This document shows, one piece after another, positions 35,043-64,000 of a stretch of DNA of 64,000 bases. The position numbers were made by a program, and so were the translations under genes. Position 1 is the stretch's first letter. Every line of letters begins with the position of its first letter. The notes under the pieces were generated by a model. That model worked only from the letters and a program-made list of their open reading frames with translations, was not told the origin of the DNA and made no database searches. This DNA is from a virus. Taxonomy: Duplodnaviria > Caudoviricetes. The DNA is taken from positions 54,935-118,934 of IMG/VR virus record IMGVR_UViG_3300042358_000005; one strand, given 5' to 3'.

Positions 35043-36128
35043 TTAAAGTTGTGATTTATCAAATAAGTTAACTTGTTCTGGTTCAGAAACTACATCCTCT
35101 TCCACTTCTATTTCTTCTATAGGAAGATCAGACTCATTGATCTTAGCAATAATCTTTTCTCTTAGCTCATCATAGAACTCTGGATTATCAACCACCAACT
35201 GTTTGAATTCTTCTAAATCATACTTAGTTCCATCTACAGTCATAGTTTTACCATACTTACGTCCTAGTTCAAACTCATTAAGAAGAGCCATCATCTCATC
35301 AAGTTTATCAATACCTTTACCATACACTATCTCAAATTCCGATTTGCGATATGGAGGAGACATTTTATTCTTAATAGCTTTCAACTTAGTAATATTACCA
35401 TAAGTTACATCACCATCTTTAGCTAAGCTTCTAGACACTTCTATTCTTACATCACTATAGAATTTCAAAGCATGACCACCTTGAGTTGTTGTTGGATTAC
35501 CAAACATAACACCAATCTTCTCTCTATACTGACTAATAACAATTACACATACATTATGTTGCGATAGAGCCCCTTTAAGCTTTGGATAAGCATTACTATT
35601 CAATAAAGCCTTTCTACCGATTGTAGAGTCTCCTACATCACCATCAAGCATCTTTTTAGGAATAAGAGATGAATCTGAATCTATGATAACAAGATCAATC
35701 TCTCCAGTGTTAATCATTTCCATTGCAATGTTGAATCCTTCTTCACCACATGATGGTTGAGAGATTAACATTTTAGTTGTATCTACACCTAATTTCTTGA
35801 AATAGCTCTTATCAACAGCATGCTCACCATCTATATATAGAACAGTTCCACCTGCTTTCTGGCATTCAGCTGCAGCATGTCCACATATTGTAGATTTACC
35901 TGTACCCTCCCAGCCCATAAGTTCATAGAGTTTCCCCTTTACAAATCCTCCTACACCAAGAGTGATGTGATCAAAACCAATACTTCCTGTACTGATTACA
36001 TCATAATCTCCTCCTGCTTTAGAATCTAATGCTAAAATTGAACCAACACCATACTTTTTATTTAGGTTGTCGATTGCTGTTAGAAACTTGCTATCAGTTT
36101 CTTTTGTCACTGCTTTTTTTACTGCCAT
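35043..36128 (-). CDS. recA: RecA/UvsX recombinase
   Basis: ISTGS, GWEGTGKST, IDGEHA, SQYREKIGVMFGNP, GGHALKFYSDVR. Confidence 0.95.
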   Translation of the reverse strand: MAVKKAVTKETDSKFLTAIDNLNKKYGVGSILALDSKAGGDYDVISTGSIGFDHITLGVGGFVKGKLYELMGWEGTGKSTICGHAAAECQKAGGTVLYIDGEHAVDKSYFKKLGVDTTKMLISQPSCGEEGFNIAMEMINTGEIDLVIIDSDSSLIPKKMLDGDVGDSTIGRKALLNSNAYPKLKGALSQHNVCVIVISQYREKIGVMFGNPTTTQGGHALKFYSDVRIEVSRSLAKDGDVTYGNITKLKAIKNKMSPPYRKSEFEIVYGKGIDKLDEMMALLNEFELGRKYGKTMTVDGTKYDLEEFKQLVVDNPEFYDELREKIIAKINESDLPIEEIEVEEDVVSEPEQVNLFDKSQL

Positions 36129-38496: not shown

Positions 38497-39549
38497 TTAG
38501 CCTTTAATGTTTACTACTCCGTTAGATAAATAATTCTTGTGGCTTATGTTCCATGTGTTTGTAGATACACACCATTTCAATGCTGCAATCAAACTTCCTA
38601 CACCAGGATAAGTTCTTCCTTTGTGTACAAATCCGTGATATGCATCTTCCATATCATCAATATCTAATATATAGATCAATGGTTGATAGTAATTGGTGCT
38701 GTCACACACAATGAATTGTAAATAGTTTACTTGATATCCATAATAAGGACTATCTGGATTATTTGCTAGATGTATCATTGCATGAAAATACAAATAAGCT
38801 TGGATGTACGCTCTTCTGTACAAGTAATATTCTTCATAGAAGTTTTCTACAGACCATGTGCATTTAAGATCATATGGTTGAATAGTCTTTTCTTTGTGAT
38901 CTATCACCACTTTATCAAGCATAGATTTAAATGGATGTCCATCTATCTCATATCCTTCCACTTGCATCTGATCTATAATTTCATATCTAGAACTATTTAC
39001 AAGATTAACAATTGGTGCTGTTGTACTATTGATTCTAAGTTGTTCTACAATTTTCTCAGCAATAGATATCTCCATTGTATTCACTACAGTTAGATTTTGA
39101 GTTCTAACCTTCCTGATTTCATTATAATAGATTTCTGCATCACTTCCTATAAACTTACTTACAACTGCTTCATACTTAATCTTGAATCCAGAATCTCTAT
39201 ATGCAGCTTCTAACAATTCATTCATAGGTGTTTTAACTATACCAGATTCATCTGTAGCATCTCTTGTATTTCTATACAATGCTTCAACAAAATCTAACAT
39301 AAGTCCTGTTGGTGTAGATGCACAAGATGACATATAGAACTTCTCATCAAATAAATGAGGTTCCATAAGTAGGGTTTCAACTATTCTACCCATATTAGCT
39401 GCTGAGCTATCTTTATCTTCTACTTTCTCTTTGAGGAAATATTTCTTATAATACTTTTTTCTATCTTGAGAAAAATCTTTTAGGCTACTGGATGAATCCA
39501 TAAGCACTGCTCTGTATTGAGCTTCTGTTTTTGCTGTTCCTTTTATCAT
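38497..39549 (-). CDS. PD-(D/E)XK exonuclease (RecE/DUF3799-like)
   Basis: SSSSLK...GRIVE...FKSMLD...PYDLK...YIQAYLY. Confidence 0.8.
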   Translation of the reverse strand: MIKGTAKTEAQYRAVLMDSSSSLKDFSQDRKKYYKKYFLKEKVEDKDSSAANMGRIVETLLMEPHLFDEKFYMSSCASTPTGLMLDFVEALYRNTRDATDESGIVKTPMNELLEAAYRDSGFKIKYEAVVSKFIGSDAEIYYNEIRKVRTQNLTVVNTMEISIAEKIVEQLRINSTTAPIVNLVNSSRYEIIDQMQVEGYEIDGHPFKSMLDKVVIDHKEKTIQPYDLKCTWSVENFYEEYYLYRRAYIQAYLYFHAMIHLANNPDSPYYGYQVNYLQFIVCDSTNYYQPLIYILDIDDMEDAYHGFVHKGRTYPGVGSLIAALKWCVSTNTWNISHKNYLSNGVVNIKG

Positions 39550-43006: not shown

Positions 43007-43039
43007 TTTTATTTATTTAATTAATTGTTACTTGTTAAA

Positions 43040-43061: not shown

Positions 43062-43068
43062 TGTTAAA

Positions 43069-48879: not shown

Positions 48880-49554
48880 TTAAGCGTTATAATAATTTGT
48901 TAAACTGTTTGCTACCAATTGAAGATCATTTGGTATTTTAATCTCTGGGAACATTCCATCAGGACTTTTAGCTGGATACTTTCTGTAACGATTGGTTACA
49001 AATTGATAATTAGCTGTTCCATCTTTGTTCTCTTCTACAAGTGTGTATAAACACACAGTTAATAATCCTTCAAGCAAGACTTGATTGTCAATTAACTTAC
49101 CTGCAGTTTTGATCTTATATCCTATAACATCTGATCCATCCATTATTTCTTCTGGGTGAGTTAGATAGAATACAGTGACATCATCTCTCAATTGTCTAGC
49201 AGTTCTGAATAAATCCACCATGTCTTTAGCCATAATGCTAAATTTGGTAAATCCTACCTCTGTAGCTTTTGCCACCATATTGAATCCCATAATGTAATTA
49301 GAGTCTTCAATGATGATGTTCTTAATGTGAGGAGCTTTCTCTGAAATAGTTCTTAGCAATCGAGATATCTCATTTGCATCTTCTACTTCTTTGTAATTTT
49401 TGTTTTCAACATTGTAAATCTTTTCACTTCCCTTGAAAGGAAGCTCTTTCTTTGCAACATTGATAATGTACGTTTCTTCTGGATTCAGGTGCTTAATTGC
49501 TGTACTCTTTCCAGTACCAGTTGCACCAACAATCCCAACTAATTTGCTTGCCAT
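48880..49554 (-). CDS. AAA_24 / Sak4-like ATPase
   Basis: GATGTGKST, IIIED, KTAGKLID, AKSP.GMF. Confidence 0.85.
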   Translation of the reverse strand: MASKLVGIVGATGTGKSTAIKHLNPEETYIINVAKKELPFKGSEKIYNVENKNYKEVEDANEISRLLRTISEKAPHIKNIIIEDSNYIMGFNMVAKATEVGFTKFSIMAKDMVDLFRTARQLRDDVTVFYLTHPEEIMDGSDVIGYKIKTAGKLIDNQVLLEGLLTVCLYTLVEENKDGTANYQFVTNRYRKYPAKSPDGMFPEIKIPNDLQLVANSLTNYYNA

Positions 49555-52715: not shown

Positions 52716-52978
52716 TACTCAGTAACTTTTCTTGGTCTTCCAACAGGTCTTTTTTCAGTTGGTGCATTTTCTGAGACAACTGGTTTCTTTTTCTTGTTAT
52801 AATACTTTTTCTTTTTTCTTTTAGGTTTCTCTGTATCAGCAACAACAAATGTTATCTTTCTGGGTTGAAAAGTAGAAGGTTGTTCTTCTTTAATTTCTTG
52901 TGCATTTCTAGTTGCATAAATAATCACTGCTATTGATATAATAGCTACTACTGGTAAAATAATAAATAATTCGTTCAT
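52715..52978 (-). CDS. Membrane-anchored basic protein with AT-hook-like motif
   Basis: N-terminal TM segment; C-terminal KRPVGRPRK. Confidence 0.55.
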   Translation of the reverse strand: MNELFIILPVVAIISIAVIIYATRNAQEIKEEQPSTFQPRKITFVVADTEKPKRKKKKYYNKKKKPVVSENAPTEKRPVGRPRKVTE

Positions 52979-52997
52979 AATTGTTAAGTTTTAATTG

Positions 52998-53690
52998 TTA
53001 ATTAATTAAGTATTGGTGACCTTCTTCATTGACAAGAAGAAGTTTATCACCTTTGTTTACATTTCCTATATACTCAACTCCTTCTATTGTTTGTGTAAAA
53101 GCAAACAGTGGTTGTAAATTGGTATAATGAAAACATTTCTTTTGTTCCTCATTATCAAGTAGATTAAAAGAAGAGCAAGGAATAGCATGATCTATGTGCC
53201 AATATTCTCCATAGTTATCCCAATTCATTGTAGGAAGAAACTTAGATTCCAAATAACTTTTTAGCTCTATGATAGAACAACCTAATAAATCTAAAGTTTT
53301 TTTACTTTTGATTGTTCCTTTAGAAGTAACAGCTATGTATAATCTATTTCTAAGTCTTTTTTTAATTTTAAAGTGTATATCATTATTAATTCTAATTTTT
53401 TCTTTTTCACTTAGAATCTTTCTATTTTTTGTATGATACTCTTTAGACTTAGCGTACTGTTTTTCTTTATTATCATCTTTTTCAATCCATTTTTTACCAT
53501 ACGATTTAGCTTTTTCTGGATTATTTTTATACCAGTTTTTATTTCTTTCGTTAAGTATTTCTTTATTAGCTTGATAATGATTTTTAGAAAATTCTTTTAA
53601 ATATGCTTTCCTACATTCTTTACATTTACTACGTGATCTAAACTCCGTAGATGGTTTTGTTAAACCACAAATATTACAAGTACAATCCAT
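52998..53690 (-). CDS. HNH/EndoVII-type homing-like endonuclease
   Basis: CNIC...CKEC N-terminus and MNWDNYGEYWHIDH..PC.SF...CFHYTNLQPL. Confidence 0.8.
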   Translation of the reverse strand: MDCTCNICGLTKPSTEFRSRSKCKECRKAYLKEFSKNHYQANKEILNERNKNWYKNNPEKAKSYGKKWIEKDDNKEKQYAKSKEYHTKNRKILSEKEKIRINNDIHFKIKKRLRNRLYIAVTSKGTIKSKKTLDLLGCSIIELKSYLESKFLPTMNWDNYGEYWHIDHAIPCSSFNLLDNEEQKKCFHYTNLQPLFAFTQTIEGVEYIGNVNKGDKLLLVNEEGHQYLIN

Positions 53691-53752: not shown

Positions 53753-54010
53753 TTATGTTTTAATTCTTAAACCGAACTGAAGGTCAAACCATCCAAATGT
53801 TTGTTCAGCTCTTGATTTGTTAAATTTAAAGATTTTTTTTAATAGAGGAATAGCATATGCTTTGAATTCCTCATGTTGTTCTGGTGTCATGGTATTGGTA
53901 TGATACCACATTGGATCACCACTCACGTCTAGTACTGTCTTACCAATCATGTTTAGCTGATATTCAACTAGATGATTAGAGATGTTCGTACGATTGATTT
54001 TAGCTTTCAT
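53753..54010 (-). CDS. Hypothetical protein
   Basis: 85-aa ORF coupled to polB. Confidence 0.6.
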   Translation of the reverse strand: MKAKINRTNISNHLVEYQLNMIGKTVLDVSGDPMWYHTNTMTPEQHEEFKAYAIPLLKKIFKFNKSRAEQTFGWFDLQFGLRIKT

Positions 54011-55968
54011 TAGAAAAGATTTAATTGATTAGGGATGTACACTGTTTTGATTCTTCTACCTTCAGTAGCTATTTTTGTTACTAACCTATTGGCTTTCTCA
54101 ATGTAATACTCATAGTTTACATTATCAACTTTACTACCTTTTGGTAAGAAATTACAAACTTTACACACCCATTCACCTGCTTCTATCTGACTTACTGCAG
54201 CAGCTCTGGTTTGACACTCTGGATTCTTAATCTTAAAGATCTTGTCTCCAGTATTAGACACATAATAGCGTATGAGTTTATCATACACTGTTTTTTCACC
54301 TGTGGATCTATTGGTTCCTTCATAATGAAAGCTCCTACTTGCTTTCTGTCTTATACAGAAATCATACAAATTAGTATGTGCACGAATAGTTTCCTCTACA
54401 GGTGTACCATCAACAAAATAACGTTCAAGAGCTATAGGGACAACCCTTGCACTCTTGTTCTTATGGAGCTCAAAGTCAGTAAGGAAATCACCTTTCTTCT
54501 TAATCTCTCCATTGGTCATAATTGCTAAATAGTCATTCACTGTACTAAAGATAATCTTTGAATAATCAGTTCTCTCTAACTCATATTGAGTGAGGTTACT
54601 CCATGCTTCATTAAGACTATGCATTAATGGAATTAGGTCTTTCTTAATTCTGATAGTTACACCATCTGTATTAGCAGAGATCACATGTATGCCATTCAAT
54701 TCATATTGTTCAATAAGCATCATTAGACTAAGTTCACCAGTTATTGTGGTGAACATAGTTAACTGCCTATCAAATATCCATGATTGCATATCAGATGACT
54801 TACCATATACAGAGTTAACTGCAAGTTTAAGTGCTCCAACAATTCCTTTAATCTTCTTGTCCTTCTTAGCGAATGGTTTAAGCTCCAATCTCTTCTCAAA
54901 CATCTGTTTGTATCCCCTAAGGAATTCTTTACCTAAATGAGCAGGAAACTGCCCATTATTGATGATGATAGCAGGATAATAAGAACTAACATCCCAATCG
55001 ATTATCTCGTACTCTTCATCAGCCTCAAACACTTTAGGTTTGTTCTCGGTGTGAAGACCACCTTTCATAAAAGAATATATATTTCCATGGAAATCTATAT
55101 GCTCTTTGAAATCATCTTGAAGACCTAGTACGGTCTTCTTCATTTTCTTTAAGAACTCAGTTAGCTGAGGTGTCTCAAACACAACATACTTAGCAATGCA
55201 ATTCTTAAGATCTATATTCTTTCTGAAATATCCTTTTCTAGGAAGTTCTCTATACTCAATTCCTTTCTCTGAGCAATAATACTTCTTGATCATTTCATCC
55301 CCTATCTTACTATCTGAATAGTTCATACATGGAATACCAAACTCAGCTTCAATATCTTGTCTCAGCTCAACTTGGTTGTTTCCTTTGTACAATGGATGAT
55401 CACAATCACCCAGGGTTATCTTATAGAATTCATAAGTTGCATCCACATCATTATAACAATAGTCAATGGTCATTTCAACCTCTTCTTTTGTCATATCAAC
55501 CTTAGTATGGTGTATAGGCATCTCTTCAATGTTCTCAAGATCCATCTCAAACTCTAATCTCTTTAAGCTTACCATACGATTCTTATTGTTGTAGTGCATC
55601 AAAGCAAATAAGTCTATTATTTTAAAACTTAAATCACTTTCTCTATATTTTGGAAAAACTTCATAATTAGCATCATGTATTGTATCTTGAGCAACTTGTG
55701 AAATTCTTGCACATATTTCAAGACCAGATAATTCATGCCATTTATCATAATTCCTAAGAATATGCTCAATCACTTGACTATCGAATCTTAATCCATTATA
55801 TGTTACAAAATAATGATCGTTCTTTTCTTCAAAGTATCCTGCCATACGATCTATTGTGTTTTTCCATCTACTAACTTCAAACTTACGATACTTGTTAGTT
55901 TGAGGATCATAACAAACACATAAAAAGTATTCTGCCATTGTTTCTATATCTGTTACTATAACATTCAT
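54010..55968 (-). CDS. polB: Family B DNA polymerase
   Basis: Exonuclease motifs DIE / YNGLRFD / YCYND; polymerase motifs DVSSYYP, KLAVNSVYGK, NTDG. Confidence 0.95.
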   Translation of the reverse strand: MNVIVTDIETMAEYFLCVCYDPQTNKYRKFEVSRWKNTIDRMAGYFEEKNDHYFVTYNGLRFDSQVIEHILRNYDKWHELSGLEICARISQVAQDTIHDANYEVFPKYRESDLSFKIIDLFALMHYNNKNRMVSLKRLEFEMDLENIEEMPIHHTKVDMTKEEVEMTIDYCYNDVDATYEFYKITLGDCDHPLYKGNNQVELRQDIEAEFGIPCMNYSDSKIGDEMIKKYYCSEKGIEYRELPRKGYFRKNIDLKNCIAKYVVFETPQLTEFLKKMKKTVLGLQDDFKEHIDFHGNIYSFMKGGLHTENKPKVFEADEEYEIIDWDVSSYYPAIIINNGQFPAHLGKEFLRGYKQMFEKRLELKPFAKKDKKIKGIVGALKLAVNSVYGKSSDMQSWIFDRQLTMFTTITGELSLMMLIEQYELNGIHVISANTDGVTIRIKKDLIPLMHSLNEAWSNLTQYELERTDYSKIIFSTVNDYLAIMTNGEIKKKGDFLTDFELHKNKSARVVPIALERYFVDGTPVEETIRAHTNLYDFCIRQKASRSFHYEGTNRSTGEKTVYDKLIRYYVSNTGDKIFKIKNPECQTRAAAVSQIEAGEWVCKVCNFLPKGSKVDNVNYEYYIEKANRLVTKIATEGRRIKTVYIPNQLNLF

Positions 55969-56714
55969 TTTTGTATTTTTAATGTTCTTAAATATGTACT
56001 TCTTCCTATAGAAGTTGTAATTGATGCAATGTTAACGTTTAATATATCTGTCAAAGGTCTAGAATCTATTGTTCCAATTAATCTATTAAAACAATCATAA
56101 ACTTTATATTTACCATTGCTTAGTTTGATTTGATCAAATATATTATTCCAATAAGCTTTTACATCTTCTACTGATTCATCTTCATCAAGAAATATAAACT
56201 TACTAGATTCTGAATCAATTAAGTTCTTTTTAAAAAACTTCACGTTCATCTTTCTATGAATGTTAGGAGCTACAGTATTGAAATGTTCAGCACACTTATA
56301 TAAATCAGTAAAGCTTTGATAAAACTCTCCATAAATAGTATAAACCATCACTTTTCTTTTAGGTGCAGAATTACTCATTCTTATTTTAGTTTCATTTGAA
56401 ACTGCACGCTTTCCTTCAGGACATGTAGGGTCAATGTTATAGCCATGATTTCTGTTGTGAGTGTCTAATAGATTACACCAATAGTTTTCTTGTGAATAAA
56501 TATGTTCAGGGTTACACTCTTCGAGTGTTTCAAATATAAAGTTATGTTCTCCATGTTTATTAAAAGAACTTTGTAGATGGGTATTATGATGTATACCTGC
56601 TCTAAGTTTCCATTTATGCATACATAATCTATTATATAGATCTATAGTTGCACCAATGTAACTTTTATTTGTAACTAAGTTTTGAATAATGTAAACTCCT
56701 GAACTCTTTCTCAT
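55965..56714 (-). CDS. GIY-YIG homing endonuclease
   Basis: SGVYII.N....YIG...R...H.N..LQ...E...GYN plus a NUMOD-like tail. Confidence 0.88.
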   Translation of the reverse strand: MRKSSGVYIIQNLVTNKSYIGATIDLYNRLCMHKWKLRAGIHHNTHLQSSFNKHGEHNFIFETLEECNPEHIYSQENYWCNLLDTHNRNHGYNIDPTCPEGKRAVSNETKIRMSNSAPKRKVMVYTIYGEFYQSFTDLYKCAEHFNTVAPNIHRKMNVKFFKKNLIDSESSKFIFLDEDESVEDVKAYWNNIFDQIKLSNGKYKVYDCFNRLIGTIDSRPLTDILNVNIASITTSIGRSTYLRTLKIQK

Positions 56715-56786
56715 AATGATATTATCTTAATGATGTAAATGTACACAACATATTTGAAACTACCAAATAAACTTATTAACAATCTT

Positions 56787-57122
56787 TTATATCTTATTTT
56801 TTAAAAAGTTATTTATTTGGTCAAACAACCAACCTGTTAAATATGCCTCAGGTTCATCATTGTATCTATCTACCTCCATTGCGCAGTCTATGTATATAGA
56901 GTTCTTTAAATGCACTATTTCGTGTGCTATATTACTTAGATGAGTTGCGTCTGTAAACCCTATGATATAATGTCTATACTTACTTTCGTCTTTTAATGTA
57001 ACTGCTCCAAAATTAGATAGAGACTTTGTCTTATATTTTTTCTCAACATAAGACAAGTCTTTATCCAATATGATGGTTAACTTACAACAGTATATTGGTA
57101 TATTTATTGTGGTCTTTTCCAT
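56787..57122 (-). CDS. Small zincin-like metallopeptidase
   Basis: AHEIVH...DEPEAY; start set at the junction-repeat ATG (MEKTT). Confidence 0.7.
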   Translation of the reverse strand: MEKTTINIPIYCCKLTIILDKDLSYVEKKYKTKSLSNFGAVTLKDESKYRHYIIGFTDATHLSNIAHEIVHLKNSIYIDCAMEVDRYNDEPEAYLTGWLFDQINNFLKNKI

Positions 57123-57136
57123 AATCTTATTTGTTT

Positions 57137-57265
57137 TTAAATTAAAAATATTAAAAAAATTGTAAACCAAATAATCATTGGTTCTAATAACCCACCAAAC
57201 CAAAACCTATCGTAATATTCATAAAACTCATTTAACTGGTTTTTGATTTTTTTTAATGTTTTCAT
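57137..57265 (-). CDS. 42-aa peptide with C-terminal TM; absent from ORF track
   Basis: MKTLKKIKNQLNEFYEYYDRFWFGGLLEPMIIWFTIFLIFLI; starts and stops within junction repeats. Confidence 0.65.
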   Translation of the reverse strand: MKTLKKIKNQLNEFYEYYDRFWFGGLLEPMIIWFTIFLIFLI

Positions 57266-57269
57266 AATC

Positions 57270-57878
57270 TTATTTGTTTTTAAATTTAACAAACCAATCA
57301 TTAAAAGTAACTTCTATTCCATATTTATTTTCACAACAATAACCATAATAAAATGCTTTTTTCATATCTTGCTCACTATAACTTCTTTGTTTTTCTATAT
57401 CTAACTCATTAGCTATAAAATCAATTTCATCTTGTTTAGGTTCTTCTTTTGTAGGAATTTGTCTGTTATTTAATTTACAATAAATTAAATTCCACTCATC
57501 AATCATTTGTTTAGTTGCCTTTAAAAGATGAATTTCGTAATGTGAAAACATCAATGCAGTACTTCCTCTCGTAATAGGATTATCTTGGTTTACTTGTTTA
57601 CATTGTTTTATAATATAAACTTCTTCATAAGTAGGATTTTTCACAAACCATTCTAAAAACTCATCATCAATAGCTTGTACACCATCATCGATTAAGTCTT
57701 GGTCTGTTGTTAGGATGATTTTTTTATCAGTTTTAAAACTATTTGCTAACATACCATAAAGTTTTGTTTTAGTTTTAGTAATTGAATTATCTTCTTTGAA
57801 ATAACACCAATCTCCTTCTTTAATTTCTTCATCAGAAGTGATGTAGATTTTTTCTTGTAATACGTGTACGTTTTTCAT
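57270..57878 (-). CDS. Mosaic hypothetical protein (cassette)
   Basis: IYITSDEEIKEGDW...KIILTTD.DL..DGVQ.I.DEFLEWF...EEPKQ...RSYSEQD...FKNK. Confidence 0.75.
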   Translation of the reverse strand: MKNVHVLQEKIYITSDEEIKEGDWCYFKEDNSITKTKTKLYGMLANSFKTDKKIILTTDQDLIDDGVQAIDDEFLEWFVKNPTYEEVYIIKQCKQVNQDNPITRGSTALMFSHYEIHLLKATKQMIDEWNLIYCKLNNRQIPTKEEPKQDEIDFIANELDIEKQRSYSEQDMKKAFYYGYCCENKYGIEVTFNDWFVKFKNK

Positions 57879-57882
57879 AATC

Positions 57883-58086
57883 TTATTTGTTTTTAAATTG
57901 TTCGTTGTAGTATTGTTCTGCTTCTAACCATTCTGATTCAAGTGGTTTTTTAACTCTTGCATCAATAATCTGTTGCTTTTCCATTTCTTTGGCTTCTATT
58001 AGAATAGCTCTAATTAGAATTTGATTTCCGCTTGGAATTAAGTTTGCCAATCTATTTACTGCAAACTCTACTGCTGATTGTTTCAT
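57883..58086 (-). CDS. MKQxAVE / AKEMEKQQ family cassette protein
   Basis: MKQSAVEF...AKEMEKQQIIDA...AEQYYNEQFKNK; start set at the repeat ATG. Confidence 0.75.
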   Translation of the reverse strand: MKQSAVEFAVNRLANLIPSGNQILIRAILIEAKEMEKQQIIDARVKKPLESEWLEAEQYYNEQFKNK

Positions 58087-58119
58087 AATCTTATTTCTTT
58101 TTATATGTTTTATCAAATA

Positions 58120-58698
58120 GTTACTGGCTATGTTGCGAAACCTGATACCAAGTTTGAAAAATATTATCCGAAAAGATATTTATTTCAATTCCTAGTAATT
58201 TTAATCGTTTCACGCATTCCATTAAATGATTCCAGTCAGCATGAAAGTTTGGGAAATATTCTCTTTTTATAACTTGATTTCCTTCTTTCAAAACCCATCC
58301 ATTTGGGTATTTTTCTTTTTGTTCATTAAGCCATTTTTCTGCAATTACTTTTTGGCTTACAGTATCGTTATATCCGCAAGATTTAGGATGAAAACAAGAG
58401 CTTTCATCAGTTCCTACCATCCATTCAATTTCAGGTTCAAATCCTAAAAATTTTCCAATTTGGATATTTTTATCAATAATAGTTTTATAGCCATTTGATT
58501 CTTCAAATTCTCTAATAATTTTGTGGTCTAAATACATATTTTGTTTGTGGATTAAAAAACACAGCCAGTAACATATGCTACACAATAGCTGGGTTTAGGT
58601 TTAAATTTAAAGTTGGTTTTGCACCTTTTTAATATGTCATTATCCGAAGTCTGGGTGTGTGCTTGCCACAGCCATCGTGTAGCATCCGCCGTTATAGC
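58120..58698. mobile_element. Integron-like gene cassette with attC-like site
   Basis: GTTACTGGCTATGTT (58120-58134) is inverted relative to AACACAGCCAGTAAC (58558-58572). It is followed by a 17-bp inner IR (58575-58591 / 58669-58685) and GTTATAGC (58691-58698). Confidence 0.6.
58121..58537 (-). CDS. Hypothetical protein carried on the attC-like cassette
   Basis: MYLDHK...IGKFLG...FHADWNHLMEC; the stop TAA lies in GTAAC of the terminal IR. Confidence 0.7.
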   Translation of the reverse strand: MYLDHKIIREFEESNGYKTIIDKNIQIGKFLGFEPEIEWMVGTDESSCFHPKSCGYNDTVSQKVIAEKWLNEQKEKYPNGWVLKEGNQVIKREYFPNFHADWNHLMECVKRLKLLGIEINIFSDNIFQTWYQVSQHSQ

Positions 58699-58704
58699 TT
58701 ATGG

Positions 58705-59088
58705 CTATATTTCGTTTTCATCAGGAACTAATCTCAAATCAGAATCTAAAAACCACCATTTTTTCTGACTATAAATATCATTCATTTTAGAAACAAATTC
58801 TTCAATAATATCTGTTTTTTCTTTAAAACATAATTCCATATCGTGAGTATCATCATCAGGGTTTCCTTCTGTATCGTAATATCTATCAATAAGCCATTCA
58901 ATTACTTCTTCAGATGATATTGAAGCGGAATTAGATTCTTTGTTTGCTACACATAAATAACCGTGATGCGGTTCAAAATCTTCTTCCTCTAAATTGTCAA
59001 TGTTTTTTAATCCTTGCATTTCTAAATCTTCATATCCACAAAAAGTATAACCTTGTTTTAATGCTTCTTTTACTGTGATTGTATTCAT
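58705..59088 (-). CDS. Acidic hypothetical cassette protein
   Basis: Starts at the repeat ATG and ends next to the attC-like site. Confidence 0.7.
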   Translation of the reverse strand: MNTITVKEALKQGYTFCGYEDLEMQGLKNIDNLEEEDFEPHHGYLCVANKESNSASISSEEVIEWLIDRYYDTEGNPDDDTHDMELCFKEKTDIIEEFVSKMNDIYSQKKWWFLDSDLRLVPDENEI

Positions 59089-59102
59089 AATCTTATTTGT
59101 TT

Positions 59103-59231
59103 TTAAATTCTACAATCATTACATTCATCATTATCATCTAAGTCTGTATGAATATTACAATAACTTCCACAAGAAGGACATCTATCTTTGTGTTCAAACT
59201 CTGAACTCGGTTGACTATTTTTTGTTTTCAT
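59103..59231 (-). CDS. 42-aa CxxC...CxxC zinc-ribbon peptide; absent from ORF track
   Basis: MKTKNSQPSSEFEHKDRCPSCGSYCNIHTDLDDNDECNDCRI; stop lies inside the junction repeat. Confidence 0.6.
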   Translation of the reverse strand: MKTKNSQPSSEFEHKDRCPSCGSYCNIHTDLDDNDECNDCRI

Positions 59232-59676
59232 CTTTTACTATTATAAAGTTATTTATTTTCATCCATTTTAAAAACTGTGATACAGTCCAATCATCATTTG
59301 ATAGTTCTTGATGCTCTCCTTCTTCTTCAAACTGATTTATAAATCCTTGCAGATAATTGTACTTTTCAAGTGTTTCTTGTTTAGGTTCTTGTGGTCCACA
59401 GTCACAATATGTTGTATGACCACAATAGCATTTTGTTTGTTCTTCCATAACTTTTTTATTATTTAATCCTTTTATAAATGTATAACCTGTAGCAGTTGGT
59501 TTAAATCTTCTTTTATTCCATCCTTCAAAAATAGTTTCTACTAATGGATTCCATTGGCTTTCCCATACATTACCTGTTGTATTTTTAAGATGATTATATA
59601 TTTCTAAACAATCTTCTGCATCTTGTTTATATTCTGTTTTTAATTGCACTTGCAATCTATCCATTAATTTACCCAT
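59215..59676 (-). CDS. Mosaic hypothetical cassette protein (possibly two fused units)
   Basis: Internal MEEQTKCYCGHTTYCDCGP and EPKQE modules. Confidence 0.65.
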   Translation of the reverse strand: MGKLMDRLQVQLKTEYKQDAEDCLEIYNHLKNTTGNVWESQWNPLVETIFEGWNKRRFKPTATGYTFIKGLNNKKVMEEQTKCYCGHTTYCDCGPQEPKQETLEKYNYLQGFINQFEEEGEHQELSNDDWTVSQFLKWMKINNFIIVKDENKK

Positions 59677-59708
59677 AATTCTTATTTGTTTTTAAATTAT
59701 TACGTCTT

Positions 59709-59906
59709 TCATTGTCTTGTTGTGTTTTTATGATCTCTCCAATCTAACCAAAATCCTATTCCTACAATAATGTTCATACCAAATGAGGCAATAATTTCTG
59801 TTATGTCTTCATAGATATTAATAGATAGGTGGATATGTCCTACCATCCAAAAAGGCATAGCAAGATTATTTGATATCCACCTAACTAAATAATTTATAAA
59901 TTTCAT
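59709..59906 (-). CDS. Small membrane protein
   Basis: Two hydrophobic segments; TATCTTTG element at 59913-59920 upstream. Confidence 0.55.
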   Translation of the reverse strand: MKFINYLVRWISNNLAMPFWMVGHIHLSINIYEDITEIIASFGMNIIVGIGFWLDWRDHKNTTRQ

Positions 59907-59960
59907 AGCCTGCAAAGATAAGCAAAAATGTTAGAGATGCAAAATACACCTCTAACTTTT

Positions 59961-60431
59961 TTAGTTATTATAATAATATCTAACGTGATCAGAATATATT
60001 ACCACTCTACTTGGTGTACCAATGAATGATATATTTCCTGTAGGCACCTCAATACATATTTCAGCAGGTTCTTGTTGTGGTCCATCCCATATTTTTGAGA
60101 ATTCTTCTATTGTTAATTCTTCTTTACCAACAATAACATCATCTTGTTTTGCAAGAATAACTTCTTCCTTATCATTCACATCCCATAACTGTGGAGGAAT
60201 AACAGCAGTGTTTTCTTTCTTAGCTTTCTTAACACGAGGTCTCTTTGTTGGACCAACATAATCATTCTTGATTTTTCTTGTCTGTTTGGCTAGTTGAATA
60301 GCTTTGTAATAAATACCTGAAGGTGGTCTTCCCCATGTCTTAGATAACTCATCAGCAATAATGATAGCTGGTTTACCTGTTCTAATTTCTTGCTTGATCT
60401 CATTGATCTGCTTAGGTGTGTAATGTTTCAT
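59961..60431 (-). CDS. Hypothetical protein with N-terminal HTH/SANT-like segment
   Basis: HYTPKQI...IADELS...GRP.SGI. Confidence 0.55.
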   Translation of the reverse strand: MKHYTPKQINEIKQEIRTGKPAIIIADELSKTWGRPPSGIYYKAIQLAKQTRKIKNDYVGPTKRPRVKKAKKENTAVIPPQLWDVNDKEEVILAKQDDVIVGKEELTIEEFSKIWDGPQQEPAEICIEVPTGNISFIGTPSRVVIYSDHVRYYYNN

Positions 60432-60676
60432 AACTTTTTCAATTTGGTTTCTATAAATGTTCTAATTAACTCTCGGTTCATGTGCTTAGCACATTTTTTA
60501 TTAAATTCATCCTTAAGTATATCTTCGTACTTAGTCTTAGATATTTTATACTTAACTCCATTCTTGTGTTTTGGATCATTAGATTCCATTGTAATAGCTC
60601 TAGTCTTGATTGTTTCAATCACTGAATAAGCTATACATCTTTCATCTTTGAACCTTTTCTCTGTTAATACTTCCAT
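60428..60676 (-). CDS. Hypothetical protein
   Basis: Start set at MEVLTE. Confidence 0.55.
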   Translation of the reverse strand: MEVLTEKRFKDERCIAYSVIETIKTRAITMESNDPKHKNGVKYKISKTKYEDILKDEFNKKCAKHMNRELIRTFIETKLKKL

Positions 60677-60678
60677 AG

Positions 60679-61128
60679 TTAGTCTTCTTCTAATCCATCG
60701 TTTAATGTTACATCCCAATCATTAATATCTTCTTGATCAAGACTTAATACCACTTTATCCTCCATTATTACAGGAGTTTCTGTTTCTTCATCTATTTCTA
60801 TTGCTAGATAACCTTCCCATGCTCTTAGCACTAGATTAATATCATCTAGTGTGATGTCTCTTAGTTCATCTGTGTCTTCTCCTTCATCCCACCATCCAAT
60901 CTCTTCATCTGTAGCAAGAACATTACCATCTTCATCAATAATTAATAGTTCTACTGGTGCACCATGTTTAGCCATAAATTCATCTATGTCTTCAGGAATC
61001 TCTTCAAGTTGCCATAGTTCAACATATGGTTCAACAACACCAATAAATATCCTATTGACAAAGAGCATACCCTCCTCTAATTCAAGAGGAAGATAGCTTT
61101 TTAATACAATTTCTGCTGATGACCACAT
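60679..61128 (-). CDS. Highly acidic hypothetical protein
   Basis: 149 aa, Asp/Glu-rich. Confidence 0.65.
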   Translation of the reverse strand: MWSSAEIVLKSYLPLELEEGMLFVNRIFIGVVEPYVELWQLEEIPEDIDEFMAKHGAPVELLIIDEDGNVLATDEEIGWWDEGEDTDELRDITLDDINLVLRAWEGYLAIEIDEETETPVIMEDKVVLSLDQEDINDWDVTLNDGLEED

Positions 61129-61484
61129 TAGAAATCTCTTTTAGGTGCTGGTTCAGTGATTTGATACACACTATGTCCACTAGATAGTCTCAATAATATA
61201 TGAAGCTGTTCAGCTTCTAAATAGTCTATCTCTTTCTTTGAGTTAACACCAATGATTTCTATACCACTACCAGTATCTACTAGTTGCATAGCAACTGTCT
61301 TTCTAACATTATCAGCCCATTCAAAATCATCACTATAATATAGTGTATGAACTGTAGCTTCTTTTGTAGCTTCTAGTTTATGATAATCATATTCATGTGT
61401 ACCATTAATATACACTTCTTCTCTGTATAACACATCACTTGTGTTATCAATTACATCTTGTATTTCTTTCTTTAATGTTGCCAT
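61128..61484 (-). CDS. Hypothetical protein
   Basis: 118-aa ORF. Confidence 0.65.
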   Translation of the reverse strand: MATLKKEIQDVIDNTSDVLYREEVYINGTHEYDYHKLEATKEATVHTLYYSDDFEWADNVRKTVAMQLVDTGSGIEIIGVNSKKEIDYLEAEQLHILLRLSSGHSVYQITEPAPKRDF

Positions 61485-61489
61485 GTTAT

Positions 61490-61927
61490 TTATTTTTTAC
61501 GATTATTACGCATTAGTTCTCCCTTTGAATGTACACCTCTACTATATTTATTTACAATTATCTTATTAGTACCACTAGTGAAATTCTTTTCTTTTTTATC
61601 TAATCCTGTTAGTCTCTTTCTTTCAACTTCAGATAGTTCATTGTACTGATAGCTATCTAATAAATTCATTTGACCGTTTATATCTTTCCATTCTTCAGAT
61701 GTAACTTTTCCTGGCTTAGCTATTCTAAACTCAGAAGGTATGTTTAATTCATCAAGAAGATCATCAATAAAAGATATTCTATCACTATTGAAATAATAAT
61801 ACCTCAATAGTGATTTACCTCTACTGTGCTGAGAGTCTAATACATTCTGCACTGTAAGATCATGATACTGTCCAAACTTAAGAGTTGACTTTCTAGTCAA
61901 GGTTCTTAGTAGAGTTACATCAGACAT
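61490..61927 (-). CDS. Hypothetical protein
   Basis: LRTLTRKSTLKFGQY motif. Confidence 0.65.
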   Translation of the reverse strand: MSDVTLLRTLTRKSTLKFGQYHDLTVQNVLDSQHSRGKSLLRYYYFNSDRISFIDDLLDELNIPSEFRIAKPGKVTSEEWKDINGQMNLLDSYQYNELSEVERKRLTGLDKKEKNFTSGTNKIIVNKYSRGVHSKGELMRNNRKK

Positions 61928-61929
61928 TG

Positions 61930-62163
61930 TTAATAACCTGCTAGTTTAGATATTGCACCCTCTTGACTTAATACATAAGCAAGATCTGATTCTTGTTTAG
62001 GTGTAAGAGTTTTGATTGTAGATATCAAATTGATTCTACTGTATGTAATGTCTTCACCATAGATGTTTGTAACATTACTTCCAATCTCTTTTATTTTATT
62101 GTAATTAAACACTGTTACAGGTTCACCATCTGTGTCCTGCCATTTTCCATTTACTATTTTCAT
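61930..62163 (-). CDS. Hypothetical protein
   Basis: 77-aa ORF. Confidence 0.6.
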   Translation of the reverse strand: MKIVNGKWQDTDGEPVTVFNYNKIKEIGSNVTNIYGEDITYSRINLISTIKTLTPKQESDLAYVLSQEGAISKLAGY

Positions 62164-62168
62164 AACTT

Positions 62169-62408
62169 TTAGTCTTTTTGATTTTCTATAACTTTCTCTA
62201 TAATTTCATCATATATGGCATCACTAATCAAATCAATGATTTCATTACCATCTACTTGTACTGATTCTAATTCAAACTCAGCATAACTTCCTGGATATCC
62301 TTCCATGTTACCATCATACATTTCTCTTGGTTCTTCTGGATGATATGTACCACTCACTGTTAGATATACACCACCTACGGTGATACCTATTTCTATTTCT
62401 TTACCCAT
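62169..62408 (-). CDS. Acidic hypothetical protein
   Basis: 79 aa; starts at a junction-repeat ATG. Confidence 0.65.
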   Translation of the reverse strand: MGKEIEIGITVGGVYLTVSGTYHPEEPREMYDGNMEGYPGSYAEFELESVQVDGNEIIDLISDAIYDEIIEKVIENQKD

Positions 62409-62413
62409 AATTC

Positions 62414-62713
62414 TTATTTCTTTTTAAATTGTTCAAACCATTCTTTAGGGCTTAACGATTTTTTAATTAATAAACGATAGTTTGCATAATCATTCATATC
62501 CTCCTCACTATAACTTCTTTCTTGTTGCTTATTTTTGTAAATAGCTTTTAAAATATCTCTAACATCATCTGGACTAAAGTTATTCTTGTCTTGTTCTTGT
62601 TGTTGAAGTTCTCTCCCACTTATAAAGTCAGTAAGCCATCTTACTTTATCATTACCATTAATATCTGTTCTTGATATAAGTTGGGCTAATTTTTCAATAT
62701 CTACTGTTGTCAT
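62414..62713 (-). CDS. Mosaic cassette protein
   Basis: MTTVDIE...ERSYSEED...EWFEQFKKK; start set at the repeat ATG. Confidence 0.7.
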   Translation of the reverse strand: MTTVDIEKLAQLISRTDINGNDKVRWLTDFISGRELQQQEQDKNNFSPDDVRDILKAIYKNKQQERSYSEEDMNDYANYRLLIKKSLSPKEWFEQFKKK

Positions 62714-62717
62714 AATC

Positions 62718-62945
62718 TTATTTGTTTTTAAATTGTTGTAAAACACTATTCTGTTTTTGTTCATAATCAATTCCTTCAAAAATTCCTTTAAGTCTTGCAT
62801 CAAAAATATGTTGCTTTTCCATTTCTTTTGCTTGTTCACATATTTCAAATCTTTGAAAATGAAATTCTGCTTTTGATATTTCATCATTAAAAAGTTTTGA
62901 TACTAATATTCCAATTTGTTCTGTTTGAAATTCTACTGCTGTCAT
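62718..62945 (-). CDS. TAVE / AKEMEKQ family cassette protein
   Basis: MTAVEF...EQAKEMEKQHIFDA...QQFKNK. Confidence 0.75.
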   Translation of the reverse strand: MTAVEFQTEQIGILVSKLFNDEISKAEFHFQRFEICEQAKEMEKQHIFDARLKGIFEGIDYEQKQNSVLQQFKNK

Positions 62946-62959
62946 AATCTTATTTGTTT

Positions 62960-63061
62960 TTAAATTATACCTTTATTAAAAAGTATTGTAATGATAATAC
63001 AAATTAAAATTCCAATAGAAACCCCATAAAAAAATGTACTAATTTTTTGTATTTTATTCAT
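62960..63061 (-). CDS. 33-aa single-TM peptide; absent from ORF track
   Basis: MNKIQKISTFFYGVSIGILICIIITILFNKGII, bounded by two repeats. Confidence 0.6.
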   Translation of the reverse strand: MNKIQKISTFFYGVSIGILICIIITILFNKGII

Positions 63062-63065
63062 AATC

Positions 63066-63290
63066 TTATTTGTTTTTAAATTGTTCGTTGTAGTATTGTT
63101 CTGCATAAAATCTATCAGACATAACTATTTTATCGCTTTCATATTTTCCATTTTTATAAGCATCAATTATCTGTTGCTTTTCCATTTCTTTGGCTTGTTC
63201 AAAACTAAATTGAACTACTTCAAGTAAATCTCCATCGTGTTCAAAATGTGATTTTAAATTGTTGTATAACCATTCTACTGCTGTTTTCAT
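63066..63290 (-). CDS. MKTAVEW / AKEMEKQQ family cassette protein
   Basis: MKTAVEWL...EQAKEMEKQQIIDA...AEQYYNEQFKNK. Confidence 0.75.
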   Translation of the reverse strand: MKTAVEWLYNNLKSHFEHDGDLLEVVQFSFEQAKEMEKQQIIDAYKNGKYESDKIVMSDRFYAEQYYNEQFKNK

Positions 63291-63301
63291 ATTATTTGTT
63301 T

Positions 63302-63442
63302 TTAAGTTTTTTTGCCTTTAACTCCAATCATCCATCCAAATACTATTGGAGCAAATCTTCCTAATGGTATGTGTAAAATTTCACTTGTATTCCAAATACA
63401 ACTACCTATAAACTGTAATAGTGTTTCTTCTTTCCAAATCAT
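63302..63442 (-). CDS. 46-aa hydrophobic peptide; absent from ORF track
   Basis: MIWKEETLLQFIGSCIWNTSEILHIPLGRFAPIVFGWMIGVKGKKT, bounded by two repeats. Confidence 0.6.
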   Translation of the reverse strand: MIWKEETLLQFIGSCIWNTSEILHIPLGRFAPIVFGWMIGVKGKKT

Positions 63443-63576
63443 ATCTTATTTGTTTTAAAATTAATTTTCATCTTTAAAAAACATTAATATTTTATTTGTT
63501 ATGGCACAATAAATGTAAGTTCCAAAACCTTTAATTCCGAAACCATAGTCAAAATATACTCTTTGTCCTTTCATAA

Positions 63577-63660
63577 CTAATCCTTATTCCAATACCAAGC
63601 AAACCAAACTATAAATAATATAATTCCTATTGCTATTCCAATAATAATACCTAATACCAT
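63577..63660 (-). CDS. 27-aa single-TM peptide; absent from ORF track
   Basis: MVLGIIIGIAIGIIIFIVWFAWYWNKD; starts at the repeat ATG. Confidence 0.55.
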   Translation of the reverse strand: MVLGIIIGIAIGIILFIVWFAWYWNKD

Positions 63661-63663
63661 ATC

Positions 63664-63891
63664 TTATTTGTTTTTAAATATTTCTAATAATTCAGAATAA
63701 CTACATTCATCATTTTTTGAATAAAAATCTTCTGTTAAGTTTTCTAACCATTTGCCAAACTCAATAGCAAATTTATCTTGTTGTTGCTTTTCCATTTCTT
63801 TGGCTTGTTCAATAATTTCACCGTAAGTTAATTTAGATGATAAGATGTTTCTAAGTTGTTCTTCTAACCATTCTACTGCTGTTTGTTTCAT
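63664..63891 (-). CDS. MKQTAVEW / AKEMEKQQ family cassette protein
   Basis: MKQTAVEWL...EQAKEMEKQQ...IFKNK. Confidence 0.75.
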   Translation of the reverse strand: MKQTAVEWLEEQLRNILSSKLTYGEIIEQAKEMEKQQQDKFAIEFGKWLENLTEDFYSKNDECSYSELLEIFKNK

Positions 63892-63902
63892 AATCTTATT
63901 TT

Positions 63903-63986
63903 TTATTTTAAAAGGTTTACTAAAATCATTACTACTAAAGATGTTAAAAGTCCAAGTATGTAACCATAGATTAATTTATTTTCCAT
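63903..63986 (-). CDS. 27-aa single-TM peptide; absent from ORF track
   Basis: MENKLIYGYILGLLTSLVVMILVNLLK, bounded by two repeats. Confidence 0.55.
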   Translation of the reverse strand: MENKLIYGYILGLLTSLVVMILVNLLK

Positions 63987-64000
63987 AATCTTATTTGTTT

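Follow-up and report, generated by a model that had tools for sequence, protein, structure and literature searches.

A short stop-start repeat at the junctions of exchanged accessory mini-genes in a lake-water phage of Flavobacterium type

The window, as the whole stretch of 64,000 nucleotides analysed here is called, belongs to the 118,934-bp genome of a lake-water phage of Flavobacterium type and carries an accessory array of small genes towards its end. A motif search of the window detected 15 copies of the junction repeat AATTTAAAAACAAATAAGATTATG, comprising seven exact 24-mers and eight variants, against 0.01 expected by shuffling. All are found on the minus strand and fall into two clusters (57120-59698 and 62406-64000), as the first-pass annotation had described. 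The features of the array are the following (asterisks mark stop codons).

56790..56815, minus strand: decayed repeat copy that has lost its ATG (..NNFLKNKI*), at the array's downstream end
57120..57143, minus strand: exact repeat; the upstream 42-aa gene stops in frame ..I*, and the ATG is that of a 111-aa HExxH gene
57263..57286, minus strand: exact repeat; end of the 202-aa gene (..KFKNK*) and ATG of the 42-aa gene
57876..57899, minus strand: exact repeat; ATG of the 202-aa gene, where homology to locus L063 begins
57883..58086, minus strand: AVEWL-family mini-gene, with paralogs at 62718-62945, 63066-63290 and 63664-63891
58084..58107, minus strand: variant with three mismatches to the 24-mer; ATG of the 67-aa AVEWL-family gene
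59086..59109, minus strand: exact repeat; ATG of a 127-aa gene
59674..59698, minus strand: variant with a 1-nt insertion (TAAGAATTATG); ATG of a 153-aa gene, upstream edge of cluster 1
59709..62408, minus strand: repeat-free block of nine genes between the two clusters, with a repeat copy on either side
59913..59943, minus strand: Bacteroidetes-type promoter, TTTG-N19-TATCTTTG, 6 nt before a 65-aa gene
62406..62430, minus strand: indel variant (TAAGAATTATG; AAAAAG, insertion); end of a 99-aa gene (..EQFKKK*) and ATG of a 79-aa gene
62711..62734, minus strand: exact repeat, from the motif search
62943..62966, minus strand: exact repeat; the upstream gene stops in frame ..I*
63059..63082, minus strand: exact repeat, from the motif search
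63288..63308, minus strand: indel variant (AACTTAAAAACAAATAATATG, TAATATG), from the variant search
63440..63462, minus strand: indel variant (TAAGATATG), bounding a 46-aa cassette together with the 63288 copy
63658..63680, minus strand: indel variant (TAAGATATG), from the variant search
63889..63912, minus strand: degenerate variant (TTTAAAATAAAAAATAAGATTATG), from the variant search
63984..64000, minus strand: repeat core truncated where the window and the contig end; the identical 17-mer forms the other contig end (g1-17)

The ORF positions agree with the earlier description of each copy as ending in the ATG of the next gene and usually containing the previous stop. The 3' end of every copy (15/15) is the ATG of an ORF, and the upstream stop codon lies inside the repeat in one of two frames, ..FKNK* or ..I*. 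Copies are separated by 95-1002 bp, close to the unit length of about 95-1000 bp given before. When the complete genome was searched with up to four mismatches, the only further copy was that at g1-24, the opposite end of the contig, and none stood in front of any core or late gene, which bears out the same claim made from the window. The decayed copy sits at the end of the array with no gene after it; in locus L039, the homologue of the gene ending there is followed by an intact repeat and another gene. The downstream edge of cluster 2 is formed by the 62406..62430 copy.

The array is the least conserved region of the genome in comparison with the relatives G001-G003, and the ten array proteins scanned gave no Pfam hit passing the curated cut-off and matched no PHROG with a known function. 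Four cassettes are paralogs belonging to a single mini-gene family (AVEWL), so that the earlier description of the cassettes as unrelated small ORFs stands as to size and fails as to unrelatedness for these four. The AVEWL family has at least 762 clusters and a native tail ..YYNETFK.., with an FKNK end in 23 of the top 120 members. The 5' half of the repeat is likely to derive from the family tail, of the form ..YYNE(Q/T)FK...

These relationships raise the question of whether the repeat has any role of its own, since it could represent the C-terminal codons ..EQFKNK* and the spacer of a tandemly duplicated mini-gene family. The paralogy, the size and tail of the family, and the fact that FKNK* is the commonest reading of the upstream ORF (51 of 84 contexts) favour this origin. 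The remaining contexts have the I* frame (15), no upstream ORF (16) or in-frame read-through (2), and many unrelated ORFs precede the repeat. Given this mixture of FKNK*, I* and absent upstream ORFs, the conservation is at the DNA level and not at the peptide level. Synonymous and non-coding positions are invariant up to the ATG, in contrast with the paralogs' coding DNA, which is about 68-80% identical (BLAST), and homology with other phages begins exactly at the repeat. A mere by-product of duplication is considered very unlikely.

The repeat is by no means confined to this phage. An exact 22-mer of it was found at 85 IMG/VR loci, in phages of 58, 70, 110-120 and 308 kb. It is absent from all 185,579 prokaryote species genomes searched. 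Across 87 distinct IMG/VR contexts, the information content is at background outside about -24 to +6. An ATG follows within 9 nt after 154 of 162 distinct repeat cores, none of which lies on the opposite strand, and the distance from the TAA to the ATG varies from 0 to 6 nt. The relatives G001-G003 have just two to four copies apiece and therefore the repeat is not required for this type of genome.

Comparisons with other phages have revealed that homology changes at these same junctions. Against G001-G003, breakpoints occur at 59672-59693, 62408 and g1-10, each within a repeat copy. Homology to G001, G003, L050 and L039 begins or ends at the 59674..59698 copy, and that to G003, at 95%, stops at 62408 in the 62406..62430 copy. 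The 2712-bp match to L050 begins at the latter copy and spans one repeat copy to the next, while L014 shares the 46-aa cassette from repeat to repeat (63288 to 63440 copies); ungapped views likewise place the beginning or end of identity with other phages at the repeat. Endpoints of strong matches lay in the repeat in 23 of 78 cases, against 5.2% expected (p=6e-12), and neighbours were retained at 2/88 repeat junctions compared to 26/48 ordinary junctions (p=1e-12), or at 2/21 repeat junctions after removal of paralogs (p=5e-4), where the fetched IMG/VR loci are ones selected for containing the repeat and paralog matches inflate some counts. Within the repeat-free block, with its eight internal junctions, neighbours were retained in relatives in 25 of 41 cases.

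Changes involving whole cassettes have also been detected. In a lake metagenome contig (run X6 contig 9), position 57119 runs on into 57263 without a mismatch, and exactly the 143-bp cassette between the 57120 and 57263 copies is missing; in L114 the 59086 copy is joined to the 62406 copy. Downstream of the 63984..64000 copy, the window's own contig, L113 and L114/L115 show 100% identity, and upstream of it they carry three unrelated sequences. Assembly chimeras at repeats are conceivable in metagenome contigs; a 27-bp repeat is shorter than the largest k-mers of such metagenome assemblers. The breakpoints in three relatives, the 85 IMG/VR loci, the metagenome contigs and the near-identical strains support the first-pass proposal that the repeats are crossover points, in the sense that insertion, deletion, replacement and re-joining of accessory genes take place at them.

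Three genes of the window, whose presence had been reported correctly, are candidate drivers of this exchange.

35043..36128, minus strand: RecA/UvsX-like recombinase
38497..39549, minus strand: exonuclease VIII-like protein
48880..49554, minus strand: Sak4-like ssDNA-annealing protein

That these proteins drive cassette exchange is plausible only; the genome has an endonuclease VII-like gene as well. The earlier statement that the window holds no integrase can be extended to the complete genome, where no match to tyrosine or serine recombinases (PF00589, PF00239) was obtained while positive controls matched. This result weighs against reading the array as an integron-like platform whose cassettes would be moved by a site-specific recombinase, with the repeat as an attC-like site. 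The resemblance lies in promoterless single-gene cassettes set in one orientation downstream of one promoter, and in gain and loss of whole cassettes, as with the one missing from the X6 contig. No IntI-type tyrosine recombinase adjoins the array, however, and the repeat, which is asymmetric and unstructured, lacks the R-box type core site of an attC and the imperfect palindrome by which an attC folds as single-stranded DNA. Other short conserved DNA modules within genes carry breakpoints too, which is what ordinary homology-driven exchange would produce, and exchange here has that appearance. The integron-like reading is largely refuted and is regarded as extremely improbable.

As to expression, the repeat carries A at -3, -6, -12 and -13 and no Shine-Dalgarno (SD) sequence. 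These four positions act as positive determinants in F. johnsoniae, and SD-less initiation regions of Bacteroidia share with the repeat these A residues, weak structure and the lack of an extra AUG (Baez et al., 2019; PMC6847099). The host regions differ in being just statistically A-rich, and the exact 22-mer is in no species genome searched. The repeat has no second AUG near the start; its 1-nt deletion variants (TAAGATATG) are without A-3 and A-6, which counts against such a signal. Folding of 60-nt junction RNAs gave 0 to -5.8 kcal/mol (z-scores -1.65 to +1.38), no better than shuffles, with neither hairpin nor inverted repeat in the motif. Other genes of the same phage show the same A trend, no SD-like G enrichment (G up to 11% from -20 to -1) and a weak start-site consensus only. 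The repeats thus occupy the position expected of a ribosome-loading signal in a Bacteroidia host, in line with the first-pass proposal, and a role in translation is suggested by position, composition and analogy; a search of RNA runs gave none containing the phage. Because a generic start signal needs no 24 invariant bases, and because the other genes show such a weak consensus, part of the conservation must come from exchange or homogenisation, or from a sequence-specific factor.

The promoter at 59913..59943, outside the repeat copies, is the sole intergenic one of host type that the array region has on this strand. Since it sits 6 nt before the 65-aa gene, cluster 1 is downstream of it on that strand; no other promoter of this type occurs between it and the repeat-joined genes of cluster 1, which may all be carried on a single transcript. 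Another reading makes each copy of the repeat itself a promoter, recognised by a phage-specific RNA polymerase or sigma factor and giving rise to leaderless transcripts, comparable to the 23-bp promoters of T7-type phages or to the promoter part of the PeSLs discussed below. Fixed length, exact repetition and one orientation before each early gene would fit such a promoter, and its exact placement at the ATG would agree with mRNAs that are leaderless. Against it, the repeat has no TTTG/TAnnTTTG element while a proper one is found upstream of cluster 1, none of the proteins scanned was recognisable as an RNA polymerase, upstream ORFs routinely end inside the repeat, and the repeat occurs in very different phages. 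The giant ORFs resemble tail fibres. This reading is held to be highly improbable.

A sequence-specific factor can also be envisaged as acting on the mRNA. T4 RegA binds a conserved AU-rich sequence over the AUG of many early mRNAs. In a comparable manner, a host or phage protein or RNA could bind the repeat as an operator and switch the early genes together, with recombination as a side effect. The exact conservation of 24-30 nt is far above the need of a generic start signal, the repeat is limited to one gene class and one orientation, and its absence from host genomes is shared with the Start-Associated Sequences (SASs) of mycobacteriophages, for which the same role has been proposed (PMC3203893). 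No phage factor has been identified and the genome holds no antisense element of 12 nt or more; the TAA-ATG spacing is not constant, and a phage factor would need to be shared across lineages of such different genome sizes. An operator is considered unlikely, although it is compatible with, and not exclusive of, the stop-start adaptor proposed below.

Similar elements have been described in other phages. SASs of Cluster K mycobacteriophages are 13 bp long (GGGATAGGAGCCC), contain an SD core and precede the start codon by 3-7 bp (Pope et al., 2011; PMC3203893), where the repeat runs into the ATG itself. Like the repeat, they are asymmetric, lie just upstream of start codons of non-structural genes only, in one orientation, and in some instances include the stop of the preceding gene; both may act in translation. 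The repeat differs from the SAS consensus in having no purine-rich SD core for 16S rRNA pairing; it is longer, crosses lineages and has breakpoints at it, whereas SASs belong to one phage cluster and no shuffling role is described. Lambdoid mosaics recombine at boundary sequences, short conserved stretches found where genes meet, which are not known to share a single invariant motif.

PeSLs (promoter-early stem-loops) are short regulatory cassettes repeated in the hyperplastic regions of T4-type phages, and recombination takes place between their copies, yielding mini-circles when the copies are neighbours (Arbiol et al., 2010, PMC2839356; PMC4122927). The repeat corresponds to these in running from upstream stop to downstream start codon, in its concentration in hyperplastic regions ahead of ORFans, and in that indels and replacements between related phages end in it. 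PeSLs are longer and carry a sigma70-type promoter, a stem-loop terminator and a Shine-Dalgarno sequence, in contrast to the 24-30 nt repeat, in which neither a host-type early promoter nor a stable stem-loop is present. The repeat would act, if at all, in translation within an operon, and is preserved letter for letter across very different genome sizes. The first-pass suggestion of a new system is not upheld: integrase, hairpin and inverted repeat are all absent and the behaviour matches that of PeSLs. The best reading is of a stop-start joint which works like PeSLs and SASs and belongs to neither.

In phages of Flavobacteriia-type hosts, the repeat is probably a portable stop-start adaptor set between the cistrons of early accessory mini-genes, and doubles as a short stretch of homology at which ordinary recombination can act. 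Its RNA would form an unstructured leader with A at the four determinant positions and no other AUG, such an A-rich leader being the start-site signal of Bacteroidia without Shine-Dalgarno pairing. With UAA in two of the three frames, at distances of 5 and 17 nt from the AUG, it would close the upstream cistron; the next gene could be translated within a polycistronic early transcript and would not need its own promoter. Its 24-30 bp of DNA, in the same orientation at both cassette ends, mark where homology with other phages begins and ends, and the comparisons show deletion, replacement and re-joining of cassettes precisely there. The likely mechanism would be homology-dependent exchange via the phage RecA/UvsX, Sak4-like annealase and exonuclease, or alternatively replication slippage between close direct copies, with no involvement of a dedicated site-specific recombinase. 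Repeated exchange and selection on the start signal would prevent copies from diverging, both within a phage lineage and from one lineage to another, the 5' half having probably come from the coding tail ..E[Q/T]FKNK* of the very large mini-gene family.

A bolder extension, which is possible and rather doubtful, would make the repeat the common plug standard of a gene commons, through which unrelated freshwater Flavobacteriia phages (58 to 308 kb) trade ready-to-express mini-genes in register, its invariance perhaps enforced by a factor or by a dedicated exchange process such as homing endonuclease breaks beside arrays. If true, this would constitute a promoter-less, integrase-less analogue of integrons at the translation level.

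The 24-mer that joins the small accessory genes on the minus strand occurs in this genome as seven exact copies and one with three mismatches, while shuffled sequences lead to an expectation of 0.01. Once TAA-ATG length variants (1-3 nt) and a partial copy at the window end are counted, there are 15 copies in two clusters, as the first-pass annotation had claimed. All 15 lie on the minus strand and each is closed by the ATG of an ORF, and the claim that the previous gene stops within the repeat has likewise been borne out, in two frames: CAA TTT AAA AAC AAA TAA, which gives a protein end ..QFKNK, and ATT TAA, which gives ..I. The third frame stays open, in frame with the ATG. A genome-wide count (up to 4 mismatches, 119 kb) revealed no copy outside the clusters save at the opposite contig end (g1-24, in whole-genome positions). 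The description of the cassette ORFs as unrelated needs correction, as four cassettes are paralogous and form one mini-gene family, MK(Q)TAVEWL...EQAKEMEKQQ...YYNEQFKNK (the AVEWL family).

The window constitutes the final 64 kb of an IMG/VR record of 118,934 bp (CheckV completeness 100%, G+C about 31%). Among 83 non-array genes of at least 100 aa, 75% have an A at -3, and leaders are A-rich and devoid of Shine-Dalgarno sequences. Promoters of the TTTG-N19-TAnnTTTG type are present, several relatives have names or matches pointing to Flavobacteriia, and the phage DNA has been found in lake-water metagenomes (21 study codes listed, some with small shares). From these features taken together, the host very probably belongs to the freshwater Flavobacteriia/Bacteroidia. 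The public runs listed for this DNA included none of RNA. The following genes have been recognised in the window:

54010-55968, minus strand: DNA polymerase (protein scans)
minus-strand block: DnaB-like helicase and primase
48880-49554, minus strand: Sak4-like annealase
38497-39549, minus strand: exonuclease VIII-like gene
35043-36128, minus strand: RecA/UvsX-like gene
52998-53690, minus strand: endonuclease VII-like gene
55965-56714, minus strand: GIY-YIG endonuclease, at the downstream end of the array
41492-45366, minus strand: adjacent rIIA-like (765 aa) and rIIB-like (504 aa) genes

None of the scanned proteins was recognised as an RNA polymerase. Giant virion-type ORFs of 4328, 1578 and 2299 aa lie at 9669-16568 and 1-9185 (plus strand). 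For the 2299-aa protein, the PHROG matches were collagen-like and tail-fibre ones, and no PHROG match was obtained for the 1578-aa and 4328-aa ORFs, the latter scanned over the C-terminal 1481 aa that lie within the window.

Both contig ends carry the same 17-mer, the repeat core (window 63984-64000 and g1-17). Closure of the contig as a circle through this 17-bp overlap was considered and dropped, since the 120.6-kb contig L113 runs 973 bp past the contig end and has other cassettes there. Other metagenome contigs also start at the repeat or a few bases from it (L116 at 1-17, L036 at 6-27). Considering both observations, the repeat is probably where the record was broken, and not a point of closure. 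An HNH-like gene, recognised by eye from its H-N-N motif, lies past the contig end at 303-746 of L113.

Three related phage genomes (G001, G002 and G003; 110-117 kb, about 77% identity across 47-59% of genome length) show good conservation to either side of the array, while the array region itself aligns over 20-40% only. In its place they have their own, different cassettes, with 2-4 repeat copies or variants each. G001 is without the whole of cluster 1 (copies 57120-59698) and the GIY-YIG gene, and homology returns at 59693, within the copy at 59674-59698; in G003, homology of 95% stops at 59672 and 62408, both within repeat copies. Homology with the other contig end starts at g1-10. Among IMG/VR loci, with matches counted from 80 bp upwards and required to reach 50 bp or more into either side, the repeat junctions are spanned in no case but one, whereas ordinary junctions of the same region are spanned 1-6 times. 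Within 39 IMG/VR matches of at least 80% identity and at least 100 bp, 23 of 78 endpoints fall within the repeat ±5 nt, a zone comprising 5.2% of the query (p=6e-12), so that breakpoints are enriched at the repeat. A homolog of the neighbouring gene is kept at 2 of 88 repeat junctions, as against 26 of 48 ordinary ones; when the paralog family is left out, the figure for repeat junctions is 2 of 21 (p=5e-4). One locus (L050) has a 2712-bp match whose ends fall exactly on two successive repeat copies, and in ungapped views of four others (L039, L063, L014 and L026) identity falls from 91-97% to none at the repeat edge or inside it.

Near-identical strains exhibit the same behaviour. A 2182-bp contig from an independent lake metagenome (public run X6, record 9) matches 56700-57119 and then 57263-57663 with zero differences, and is without exactly the 143 bp between two copies, which constitute a 42-aa gene cassette. 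Contigs encoding a protein identical to one of the window are 100% identical to the window downstream of the contig-end copy, over 939 to 8935 bp, and upstream of it their sequences are wholly different: an AVEWL-type gene ending in ..LQQFKNK in L113, a 92-aa gene ending in ..EWFQQFKNK in L114 and L115 and, if the ends of the window's own contig abut, a 39-aa-type gene ending in ..PKPVNK there, while L116 begins at the repeat. L114 also goes from copy 62406 to copy 59086 by way of a 56-bp non-coding stretch, so that 3.3 kb are skipped. These strain contigs are short-read assemblies, so that some joins at the repeat could be chimeric; a 27-bp repeat is shorter than the largest k-mers of such assemblers. 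Breakpoints in relatives, IMG/VR loci and near-identical strains support the earlier claim that the repeats are crossover points for accessory genes, and comparative data of this kind directly establish the repeat as the preferred place of exchange.

Breakpoints have also been detected inside genes, at the codons of the CDCGP(Q/E)EPKQETLE linker and of EQAKEMEKQQ. As these are further short conserved DNA modules, exchange would be an ordinary homology-driven recombination or slippage process, with no dedicated site-specific system. No tyrosine or serine recombinase is encoded in the complete genome, which extends to its full length the earlier remark that the window has no integrase. The RecA/UvsX, Sak4-like and exonuclease genes would be plausible agents of the exchange, and homing endonucleases supplying the breaks can be put forward as a speculation. 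Homing endonuclease genes occur at or in arrays, with the GIY-YIG gene here and a GIY-YIG-like gene inside the array of G002 (23627-24355). The intragenic modules (59362-59400, 57440-57470 / 57959-57995, 63149-63207 and 63777-63820) are up to 100% conserved across contigs in surroundings of about 70% identity. In other phages, what follows KQETLE forms an independent gene beginning at the repeat (59382 joined to 62412; public runs X8, X9 and X10). Other short joints, with sides of 21-30 letters (e.g., 59110 to 63056 and 57856 to 59086), were discounted, being either ambiguous placements of the repeat or other organisms.

The repeat is widespread outside this genome. Its exact 22-mer TTTAAAAACAAATAAGATTATG was found in 85 stretches of IMG/VR contigs, and a search of 185,579 species genomes from bacteria and archaea gave none. 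Genome size varies among its carriers, with examples at about 58 kb (completeness 91%), at 70 kb (98%), between 110 and 124 kb, and at 308 kb (terminal repeats; 100%). A search performed without a positive control gave no match to the window's DNA polymerase in five other repeat-bearing genomes, so that evidence for distinct phages is taken from genome size and completeness only. Across 87 distinct contexts, high information content is confined to about -24 (AACAA) through +6 (AAA), with background values on either side; the repeat is therefore a discrete element of about 27-30 nt. At least two copies are present in 65 of the 85 loci, an ATG follows the core within 9 nt in 154 of 162 distinct occurrences, and none of the 162 has the core on the opposite strand. 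The ORFs upstream are very diverse across contexts and meet the repeat as follows:

Upstream ORFs at the repeat (84 contexts)
ending in ..FKNK and stop: 51
ending in ..I and stop: 15
no upstream ORF entering the repeat: 16
reading through in frame: 2

Conservation is at the DNA/RNA level and tied to start codons, more than that of a conserved peptide tail. The AVEWL family comprises at least 762 clusters, has no Pfam domain, and ends in FKNK in 23 of its 120 top members; the native tail ..YYNE(Q/T)FK.. of this family is the probable origin of the repeat's 5' half.

In Flavobacterium johnsoniae, initiation is favoured by A at -3, -6, -12 and -13, by low structure and by the absence of AUGs nearby (PMC6847099). 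The repeat has all of these, and closes two reading frames 5 and 17 nt ahead of the AUG. On these grounds, its most likely role is that of a portable stop-start adaptor in polycistronic series of early mini-genes. No hairpin was detected, with 60-nt junction RNAs folding at 0 to -5.8 kcal/mol, like shuffles, and nothing of 12 nt or longer was found in this genome as an antisense partner. The repeat has no host-type promoter element, the array's only intergenic one preceding cluster 1. A non-coding module of about 56 bp with a promoter-like TACGTTTA box has been observed directly before the repeat in two unrelated contexts (L114 2099-2154 and the middle copy of L046), which suggests a possible further role of the repeat as leader of a primary transcript.

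Functionally, the closest known elements are the PeSLs of T4-type phages, regulatory stop-to-start cassettes of hyperplastic regions which mediate modular shuffling (PMC2839356), and the Start-Associated Sequences of Cluster K mycobacteriophages, which are conserved, absent from the host and located at the starts of non-structural genes (PMC3203893). The repeat has no promoter, stem-loop or Shine-Dalgarno sequence, differs in sequence, and belongs to neither; nor is the array an integron. A literature search for the motif in Flavobacterium phages found no description. The label of a new system is not supported, the repeat being a new variant of mobile regulatory cassettes, similar in function to these elements. 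The mobile regulatory cassette is a known kind, and the repeat stands out by its reduction to a translation-level joint, by being exactly identical in unrelated phages and by not occurring in cellular genomes.

Early accessory genes of phages, among them genes for host take-over and anti-defence, turn over very fast, and their movement between phages is poorly understood. In T4-like phages such genes are moved by promoter-terminator cassettes (PeSLs), whereas here the shared element is a bare stop-start joint, which suits hosts without Shine-Dalgarno recognition, and the same sequence recurs across numerous different phages but in no bacterial genome. Should this be confirmed, the joint would offer a simple tag with which mobile mini-gene arrays can be located in metagenomes, a natural system for testing how Bacteroidia ribosomes choose and re-use start sites, and a candidate short adaptor for stacked gene expression in Flavobacterium and Bacteroides hosts.

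Additional aspects of the array concern its contents. Pfam and PHROGs scans of ten cassette proteins gave nothing useful, one match being to phrog_1365, of unknown function (E 4e-19). This match belongs to the last cassette (56787-57122, minus strand), whose 111-aa protein has a HEIVH (HExxH) motif and may be small metallopeptidase-like. When the array region was scanned for Rfam families (E up to 1) and tRNAs, matches were at chance level only. Megablast against deposited phage genomes returned a sole match, a 150-bp non-coding element of Flavobacterium psychrophilum phages. Cluster 1 contains an ORF-free stretch of 169 nt (58538-58706, minus strand) with an imperfect inverted repeat of about 19 bp around some 75 nt (MFE -39.6 kcal/mol, z -2.26); it is absent in the other fetched loci and has 83% identity to an intergenic region among small genes of F. 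psychrophilum phages FPSV-D15, D35 and D17. A second junction motif, (A)ATCCTTAATAA(C), has been observed 0-25 nt ahead of the ATG in several early genes of the minus strand, with sites upstream of the array and outside the window (g344-7234), in the 22592 region of G002, and at 52805-53110 and 55715-55861 of G003.
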